Shown here one piece after another: positions 40,822 through 42,174 of a stretch of 64,000 nucleotides of DNA. The translations under genes were made by a program, and so were the position numbers. The notes beneath the pieces were generated by a model. That model searched no databases. It was not told where the DNA came from and worked only from the letters and a program-made list of their open reading frames with translations. Each line of letters opens with the position of its first letter. Position 1 is the stretch's first letter. The DNA comes from a virus (taxonomy: Duplodnaviria; Heunggongvirae; Uroviricota; Caudoviricetes). Location: the IMG/VR virus record IMGVR_UViG_2713896909_000009, positions 32,001 to 96,000 of that record; one strand, written 5' to 3'.

Positions 40822-41069
40822 GTTTGTGTAACAAATGCACAAATGGATCTAATAACCTCTTTTTTTTAAAGGCGAAAATATGTACCCTAAATGGGTTATA
40901 AGGCAGGTGAGGTTATAATGAGAAACTATTATTACCGTTATTATTTATGGCTGGGACTGTTAATGCAGCATCAAGCGTAAAGGAGATTTGTACCGATTAT
41001 ACGAAATACCTTGGGCAAGTTTACGCCTTTGCGATCAATGACTATTAATCCATGCGTAGGAGTGGATTT

Positions 41070-41387
41070 ATGCTGATTCGTTTGTTTTTAGTGCTTTCCT
41101 TTTTAACATTTAATGTTTTTGCTGATGAAGTTGACTTTTCGAAGGTAGATTGCAATTCAGTGGAAACAAGAAAAGCTCTTATTGAAGAATATAACGAAAT
41201 ATTATCGTCATATGGAATAACAGTGGTTGATTCTTATAATCAAAAAACTATTCAGAAAGGAATAAATAAACTGGTCTGTTATGGGGTTTACAAATATTCA
41301 GATGGCTCTTCGGAGTATGTTATTTATAAAGCATACCCAAATAGTCTTGGTGAATTAATTAGTGAGTTTAAACCGATTAATGAGTGA
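41070..41387 (+). CDS. Small secreted protein (signal peptide), AT-rich gene
   Basis: ORF track 41052-41387; ATG 41070 after AGGAG; MLIRLFLVLSFLTFNVFA signal-like. Confidence 0.5.
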   Translation: MLIRLFLVLSFLTFNVFADEVDFSKVDCNSVETRKALIEEYNEILSSYGITVVDSYNQKTIQKGINKLVCYGVYKYSDGSSEYVIYKAYPNSLGELISEFKPINE

Positions 41388-41394
41388 ATGGAAA

Positions 41395-42174
41395 ATGAAA
41401 TTATTTAATGTAATAACATTTTGTTGTGCTATTTTTGCTGGAAGCGCGATAGCTGATAATAAATTGCCAGATTGGCTTTCTACCTCAAAGAAAGATTATG
41501 ATTTAGTAAGGGCATTCTATTTGTCTGGATTTGCTTCGAAAGCAATGAACAATCAATTTGGTTATCATTTGCCATCTGAGTTGGTTAATGATTTTAAAGA
41601 TAATGAATTTGCTGCTCAGGAAAAATGGAACACAATTCCAATTGTGTATGGTGAAATAAAATCCATAAGAATGGTGAATAATAAACCAATTGTAGAGTTA
41701 TTTACTCCAGGGGAAAATGCAACGCCACTAAATTATATCAAATTGAAAATATTGGATTCAAAGCAAGACTCTCTGTTAAAACTAAAAAAAGGGGATGATA
41801 TATATGCAGTGTGCTCCGGTGCTAATTTTAGCTTAGTGCCAATTCTGAGCAACTGCACTCCAGCAACAGACGTCATTGATGCTGCACTCTCTTTTTCTGG
41901 TGAATATATGTTCCCTGCTTTTGATTCTTTTTCACCTACTAAGCAAAACGTCAAATATATATTCACAAATCAAGATCCTGTTCAGATGATGAATTTTATA
42001 GGGTACCTATCCTTAGTCGATACAACGAAGGATAAGAATAAAATGGATATGGTTCGTAAGTGTACGCCTTGGAAGCCGGAATGTTCACAACAATTCGTTG
42101 ATGTAATGGAAGGATTTGATAGCATCATGTATAAATATGAGGGAGAATTTAAAAATTACATAGAATTAAAATAG
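41395..42174 (+). CDS. Secreted/periplasmic protein, AT-rich gene
   Basis: ORF track 41362-42174; ATG 41395; MKLFNVITFCCAIFAGSAIA signal-like. Confidence 0.55.
   Translation: MKLFNVITFCCAIFAGSAIADNKLPDWLSTSKKDYDLVRAFYLSGFASKAMNNQFGYHLPSELVNDFKDNEFAAQEKWNTIPIVYGEIKSIRMVNNKPIVELFTPGENATPLNYIKLKILDSKQDSLLKLKKGDDIYAVCSGANFSLVPILSNCTPATDVIDAALSFSGEYMFPAFDSFSPTKQNVKYIFTNQDPVQMMNFIGYLSLVDTTKDKNKMDMVRKCTPWKPECSQQFVDVMEGFDSIMYKYEGEFKNYIELK

Follow-up and report, generated by a model that had tools for sequence, protein, structure and literature searches.

The AT-rich gene pair on the plus strand at 41052-42174 of the analysed window (64,000 nucleotides of a Caudoviricetes record, IMGVR_UViG_2713896909_000009, positions 32,001 to 96,000) is the simB and simC pair of bacteriophage P1, which is long known and not a new system. 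We consider it highly probable that the region is a P1-type sim operon, from which an exported SimC would exclude superinfecting P1-type DNA, with SimB as a likely accessory. The function of sim was already published between 1982 and 1990.

Identity with the sim region of P1

In megablast searches, phage P1 (NC_005856, AF234172/3, OP279344) matched positions 40705-42400 at 98.8% nucleotide identity and full query coverage, and the 1990 record entitled 'Bacteriophage P1 sim region' (M34382) matched the query 40700-42400 at 97.9%. The P1 sequence under this match is annotated as simA, simB, simC and pmgC. About 21 differences from P1 were counted in the whole of 40705-42400, four of them in the 1.1 kb of simB and simC. 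The SimC protein was identical to P1 YP_006511 in 264/264 residues, both nucleotide differences being synonymous, while SimB shared 110 of 111 residues with YP_006512, with Q80K (in the 111-residue numbering) as the single change. The genes that the original prediction had not recognised are thus P1 simB and simC, at 99 and 100% protein identity. This P1 locus is the one described as sim by Devlin (1982), Kliem & Dreiseikelmann (1989) and Maillou & Dreiseikelmann (1990). A novel replacement of sim by other genes is ruled out by the 98.8% identity to P1.

In the P1 annotation, rlfA, repL, kilA, ant1/2, icd and c4 lie on one strand, and simA, simB, simC, the late promoter LPsit, pmgC, tub, pmgB and sit lie on the opposite strand; the C1 operator Oc4 (formerly Op51) and the predicted promoter PsimA are located between both units. 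The layout of the window is exactly that of P1, with sim divergent from c4-icd-ant and upstream of pmgC-tub-pmgB-sit. On the minus strand we found a KilA-N/ANT protein (37786-38586), an ANT protein (39226-40272), icd (40269-40490), the c4 RNA (40538-40623; Rfam RF01695, 70 bits, above threshold) and the a1b1 target of c4 RNA (40692-40744, likewise above the Rfam threshold). On the plus strand, from 42385 onward, genes of 188, 203, 293 and 1130 residues are open reading frames matching the pmgC-tub-pmgB-sit layout. The presence of the c4 RNA together with its a1b1 target confirms the sim neighbourhood. The original prediction had correctly placed the pair where P1 carries sim, as the NC_005856 annotation shows; its statement that the orientation differs was wrong, since P1 has the same divergent layout. 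The window and the P1 genes simA-simB-simC (P1_gp043-041) have in common the position between Oc4 and pmgC, the strands and the terminator, and differ by a deletion of one nucleotide in simA and six substitutions in the region of the predicted PsimA.

The low GC content that had drawn attention to the pair was reproduced: GC amounted to 33.5% in 40890-42174 compared to 46.5% in the whole window, and values of 0.30-0.36 in 300-nt windows outlined a low-GC island across about 40750-42400. The operator Oc4, transferred from the P1 annotation (L001 4101-4117), lies at 40805-40821 between the divergent c4 and sim units; its 17 nucleotides, AAATTTATTAGAGCATT, show no difference from P1. The predicted sigma 70 promoter PsimA follows on the plus strand at 40827-40853 (P1 annotation, L001 4123-4149). 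The six substitutions relative to P1 fall within 22 nt (40822-40843), between Oc4 and the -10 element of PsimA, and two of them lie in the -35 element. A consensus scan found no plus-strand sigma-70 promoter upstream of sim, and PsimA in the window is a predicted promoter altered compared to P1. The P1vir transcriptome paper contains no mention of sim.

The strong terminator proposed at the end of the pair was also recovered. It spans 42207-42240 on the plus strand and closes the sim operon, with a hairpin at 42207-42230 followed by a T-run (-14.5 kcal/mol, z = -4.2 vs shuffles). This hairpin was the only terminator-like one in 40600-42500, and the succession of A-run, GC stem and T-run suggests that the terminator is possibly bidirectional.

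Precursors, export signals and predicted folds

The two genes as originally delimited correspond to plus-strand open reading frames at 41052-41387 (111 residues) and 41362-42174 (270 residues from a GTG). For simB, the ATG at 41070 is the more likely start, as it is preceded by AGGAG 7 nt upstream and is also the start chosen by PGAP on an identical plasmid; simB then extends over 41070-41387 and encodes a precursor of 105 residues, while the alternative ATG at 41052 gives the protein of 111 residues. For simC, the classical sim gene, the ATG at 41395 is more likely (41395-42174), because the resulting 259 residues agree in length with ORF2 of M34382, the original sim record; the P1 annotation uses the ATG at 41380, which gives 264 residues. 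In the window as in P1, simB sits immediately upstream of simC and overlaps it when the annotated starts are used.

Rule-based prediction agreed with the N-terminal signal peptides claimed earlier for both proteins. The N-terminus of SimB contains a hydrophobic stretch and then the -3/-1 motif NVFA^DEV, with the cut after residue 18, and that of SimC, MKLFNVITFCCAIFAGSAIA^DNK, has a hydrophobic core and an A-x-A site after residue 20. SimB and SimC are accordingly predicted to be exported, with cleavage of their signal peptides. The 1990 study of Maillou and Dreiseikelmann reportedly found that a leader of 20 residues is removed from Sim, and the sim papers of 1982-1990 are said to describe a 25-kDa precursor that loses its 20-residue leader in a SecA-dependent manner. 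The cleavage predicted after residue 20 of SimC agrees with a leader of this length. Four cysteines in the mature part of SimC (Cys140/154 and Cys223/230) and two in SimB (Cys28/70) are conserved in the diverged homologues, suggesting putative periplasmic disulfides, two in mature SimC and one in SimB.

Structure prediction, which had been proposed as a check, supported a fold class for SimC and yielded no function. The AF2 model, built from an alignment of eight sequences, consists of an N-terminal helix, five strands at 83-156 and helices at 158-257; its mean pLDDT was 63.7, with low pLDDT in the strand region. The Pfam profile PF12869 'tRNA_anti-like' scored SimC with 19.1 bits (E 1e-3), below the gathering threshold of 23.5, aligning profile positions 52-144 of 146 to a domain at about residues 62-154. 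Four of eight SimC family members found by HMMER, among them P0021, P0023 and P0024, matched the same profile, with a best E of 2e-14. When the model was compared to BFVD by Foldseek, the best viral neighbours were annotated as tRNA_anti-like (E 6e-5 to 3e-4), at TM values of only about 0.25-0.44. Against the PDB, Foldseek gave no match at E <= 1e-3, and the weak neighbours, 3f1z among them, were all OB-folds; a profile search of PDB sequences returned nothing relevant. These matches point to a divergent, PF12869-like OB-fold domain in SimC, probably followed by a C-terminal helical domain.

PF12869 is an OB-fold domain typical of secreted proteins and lipoproteins, and we take 3f1z, a 'putative nucleic acid-binding lipoprotein', to be its structural representative. 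Plain PF12869 proteins differ from SimC in that they lack both its N-terminal helix and its C-terminal helical domain of ~95 residues with the second Cys pair. For SimB, the match to phrog_14329 was strong (E 1e-70), while the best Pfam match was a sub-threshold one to TcpS (E 0.07), which we dismissed. The SimB model showed one helix and a 4-stranded sheet at a pLDDT of 55.2. Its best PDB match by Foldseek (E 0.18), of a generic cystatin-like or NTF2-like kind, was treated as uninformative. Both structure models are thus of low to moderate confidence.

The simA remnant and the exchangeable slot

The equivalent of P1 simA (L001 4187-4345) lies at 40891-41048 on the plus strand and is a frameshifted remnant. 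A deletion of 1 nt in the A-run 40920-40923, right after an internal start ATG AGA AA, breaks the frame. P1 simA, annotated with 52 residues, encodes MRKLLLPLLFMAGTVNA^ASSVKE..., i.e., a signal peptide plus 26 residues; an intact SimA frame of 52 (or 43) residues with signal peptide is absent in the window, and the product would be MGYKAGEVIMRNYYYRYYLWLGLLMQHQA*. The exact simA version of the window was present in 4 of the 216 PLSDB plasmids with that stretch, all from Escherichia albertii, and the intact P1 version in 209 of 223. Two of the four E. albertii plasmids, NZ_CP117630 and NZ_CP043272, were the only PLSDB records 100% identical across 40700-42400. The deletion could be a marker of this lineage or a homopolymer sequencing error.

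P1 simA and simB share one reading frame, with a stop plus one codon between them. A published 'simB' of 471 nt (156 residues) in pMCR_SCKP-LL83 (MF510496.1, 47561-48031) has a length that would fit a read-through fusion of SimA and SimB.

P1 simA corresponds to the first ~42 residues of a secreted family, phrog_3933, whose profile has 213 positions. Long SimA is intact in the diverged P1-like element L005 (5059-5598, 179 residues) as the first gene of a sim-like operon, and in a second such element, L004 (1921-2568, 215 residues), downstream of simC. It also occurs in phage vB_EcoM-Ro157c2YLVW (L008 3001-3648, 215 residues), without simBC and with a YfjT-like gene. At the DNA level, Ro157c2YLVW stays homologous to the window across the 5' part of simA up to 41056, where simB starts; the simB-simC module thus seems to have taken the place of the remainder of a long simA.

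The long SimA proteins contain a segment, N(A/S)(P/R)GMRHQxV(Q/E)GTLE(E/S)RARGxG, that resembles residues 927-969 of Sit. BLASTP aligned long SimA with this Sit segment at 23/47 identities (43 bits), and the profile matches were reciprocal, with E 7.9e-8 for long SimA against the Sit family phrog_2533 and E 1.1e-6 for Sit against phrog_3933. In the window, the Sit segment is encoded at 47329-47457, downstream of the transglycosylase (SLT) domain, for which matches extend over about residues 745-870. The segment in long SimA could mimic the tail protein in the periplasm. Its presence is a hint that a step dependent on Sit may be the target of the locus; the long SimA with this segment is not encoded in the window. 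Sit repeats the 'RNAPGMR' motif in a weaker form ~55 residues downstream (residues 983-1010, about 47497-47580).

The sim genes occupy a low-GC slot for exchangeable cassettes, which lies between Oc4 on one side and the late promoter LPsit and pmgC on the other; homology break points delimit it to 40820-42332. Homology of P7 and SJ46 to the window stops at 40819-40830 and resumes at 42333. In between, both phages (L006, L007 4904-5968) carry a upf50.5 lipoprotein and a upf50.0 protein with DUF5384. The slot of Ro157c2YLVW holds the long SimA and the YfjT-like protein, and that of L004 additionally a 107-residue membrane protein and a YfjT-like protein. The products of all these cassettes are exported. 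The cassettes of P7/SJ46 and Ro157c2YLVW resemble sim in their slot, their plus orientation toward pmgC, their low GC and their signal peptides, but their sequences are unrelated to simBC. To our knowledge, no exclusion phenotype has been described for them. In RefSeq, the outer-membrane lipoprotein of P7/SJ46 is mislabelled as 'DNA methyltransferase'. A comparison of 54 P1-like phage-plasmids placed simCBA among eight regions that are highly variable and low in GC (variable region 4; PMC9603915).

The diverged elements carry both genes of the pair. SimC and SimB were 84 and 91% identical to the window proteins in L004, and 40 and 61% identical in L005. In both elements, the simB homologue immediately precedes the simC homologue, and the slot lies between icd/ant and pmgC-tub-pmgB-sit, which indicates that simB and simC travel together. 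In L005 (1732-2528), a PrlF/YhaV toxin-antitoxin pair adjoins ant, and a pRha-domain protein is encoded between icd and ant.

Probable superinfection exclusion and competing explanations

An ordinary P1 lysogen still plates P1vir. The original sim papers in Virology (1982-1990) are said to show that exclusion acts after adsorption and leaves transfection unblocked, and the effect was reportedly seen with sim cloned in multicopy. Taken together, the multicopy phenotype and the plating of P1vir on lysogens make the strength of exclusion at prophage copy number uncertain. As far as the published work is represented in later citations, sim is credited with exclusion of P1 itself (Devlin 1982; Kliem & Dreiseikelmann 1989), and P1 Sim is described there as an exported protein by which superinfecting P1 DNA is kept out of the cytoplasm. 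In the literature that could be found, with the papers of 1982-1990 represented through citations, we found no account of the mechanism by which Sim blocks DNA entry.

Since SimC is identical to the P1 protein, the same exclusion phenotype would be expected for the window, provided that sim is expressed from its altered promoter region. Of the two roles suggested in the original prediction, superinfection exclusion gains support from this identity with the published P1 sim, and nothing supports a host-interaction factor. The degenerate simA, simB and simC would be transcribed away from the c4-icd-ant immunity-I operon, starting beside the shared C1 operator. The SimC precursor would be exported by the Sec pathway and lose its signal peptide of 20 residues. 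From the periplasmic side, SimC would then stop the DNA of superinfecting P1-type phages from reaching the cytoplasm after adsorption, an effect that would be superinfection exclusion and not repressor immunity. For SimB, likewise predicted to be exported, the most likely role is that of an accessory to SimC, as their co-conservation suggests. Through its OB-fold and helical domains, SimC would bind some part of the injection route, most likely the tail protein Sit once ejected, or else a partner with which Sit is in contact.

T4 Imm and Sp, T5 Llp, HK97 gp15 and P22 SieA are envelope proteins, prophage- or early-expressed, that block DNA entry after adsorption. They are alike to SimC in outline, but no sequence or fold similarity between them and SimC was detected, and SimC would be a soluble exported OB-fold protein rather than a small membrane protein. 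Likewise, PADLOC-DB 2.0 contained no defence-system family matching SimB, SimC or long SimA at E <= 0.01.

The genes might be sim and exclusion in P1 nevertheless a multicopy artefact, their single-copy role being a different one at the envelope, for example defence against colicins or unrelated phages, or lysogenic conversion of the cell surface. We regard this as improbable. The slot cassettes are interchangeable and their products all exported or lipoproteins (P7/SJ46, Ro157c2YLVW), as is typical of 'moron' loci, and the exclusion phenotype reportedly needed multicopy clones. A CRISPRi screen, moreover, found simA, simB and simC to be non-essential for plaque formation (PMC10695390). The published work, to the extent that it is cited, nevertheless ascribes exclusion of P1 itself to sim, the Sit-like segment of long SimA at the same locus points to P1-type injection as the target, and searches of Pfam, PHROG and PADLOC revealed no homology to another envelope function. 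By analogy with T4 Sp, which acts against the gp5 tail lysozyme, SimC might instead act in the periplasm on incoming Sit and inhibit its SLT domain, which cleaves peptidoglycan. The location of sim directly upstream of the pmgC-tub-pmgB-sit operon and the predicted periplasmic location of SimC would fit, and OB-fold proteins can be engineered to bind lysozyme (one such OBody, 4gn3, was among the weak fold matches). Searches of PDB sequences and Foldseek searches of PDB and BFVD, however, revealed no resemblance of SimC to known inhibitors of lysozyme or transglycosylase, and the segment shared with long SimA lies downstream of the SLT domain, suggesting that a non-catalytic part of Sit matters. 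Such an inhibitor thus seems quite unlikely to us.

That the frames are chance ones in an AT-rich spacer, or a captured pair of host housekeeping periplasmic genes, has next to no probability, even though GC is low and no Pfam match exceeded the threshold. Measured against copies at a dS of about 0.2 and of about 2, dN/dS was 0.18-0.20 for simB and 0.28-0.36 for simC (0.06-0.08 for the structural gene pmgC), as expected of real genes under purifying selection; these ratios and the synteny conserved at 40% identity rule out chance frames, and the PHROG matches were strong. Clear homology to a housekeeping periplasmic protein, which the original prediction had named as speaking against it, is excluded as well, because P1-like phage-plasmids are almost the sole carriers of the genes. 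Of 5,426 complete E. coli genomes, 128 (roughly 2%) contained simBC, with all copies at least 95% identical, and 182 of the 183 places were on plasmids; this near-confinement to plasmids rules out a host housekeeping gene. At a coverage of at least 80%, the simBC segment was found in 136 of 571 matching PLSDB plasmids. A word-indexed search of 5.8 billion proteins returned four clusters of SimC relatives, an exhaustive HMMER search of 1.84 billion representative proteins only 15, and a profile search 14. By these searches SimC is nearly an orphan, with almost no relatives beyond P1-like elements.

Within the preferred reading of a P1-type sim operon, the OB-fold assignment, the pairing of SimB and SimC and the Sit-like segment of an ancestral long SimA are modest new leads on the mechanism of Sim. 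A bolder extension, which we put forward tentatively and consider rather doubtful, would make the sim slot a periplasmic anti-injection hub aimed at Sit. Long SimA, with its Sit-like segment in the C-terminal part, would be a decoy for whatever Sit docks to as DNA enters. SimB-SimC would form another module that moves independently and affects this step too, and SimC would be the only phenotyped one among the widespread secreted PF12869 proteins. If so, many prophage 'tRNA_anti-like' lipoproteins would be exclusion factors. Of the parts of such a hub, simB and simC alone are intact in the window.

Although sim is a textbook function of P1, the PGAP and PHROGs labels will continue to make its genes turn up as unknowns in the ~2% of complete E. 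coli genomes with simBC. PHROGs gives phrog_14329 and phrog_14355 (simB and simC) as 'unknown function', and PGAP labels both products as 'hypothetical protein', for instance at 4787-5891 of NZ_CP117630.1 (L003 3371-4475).
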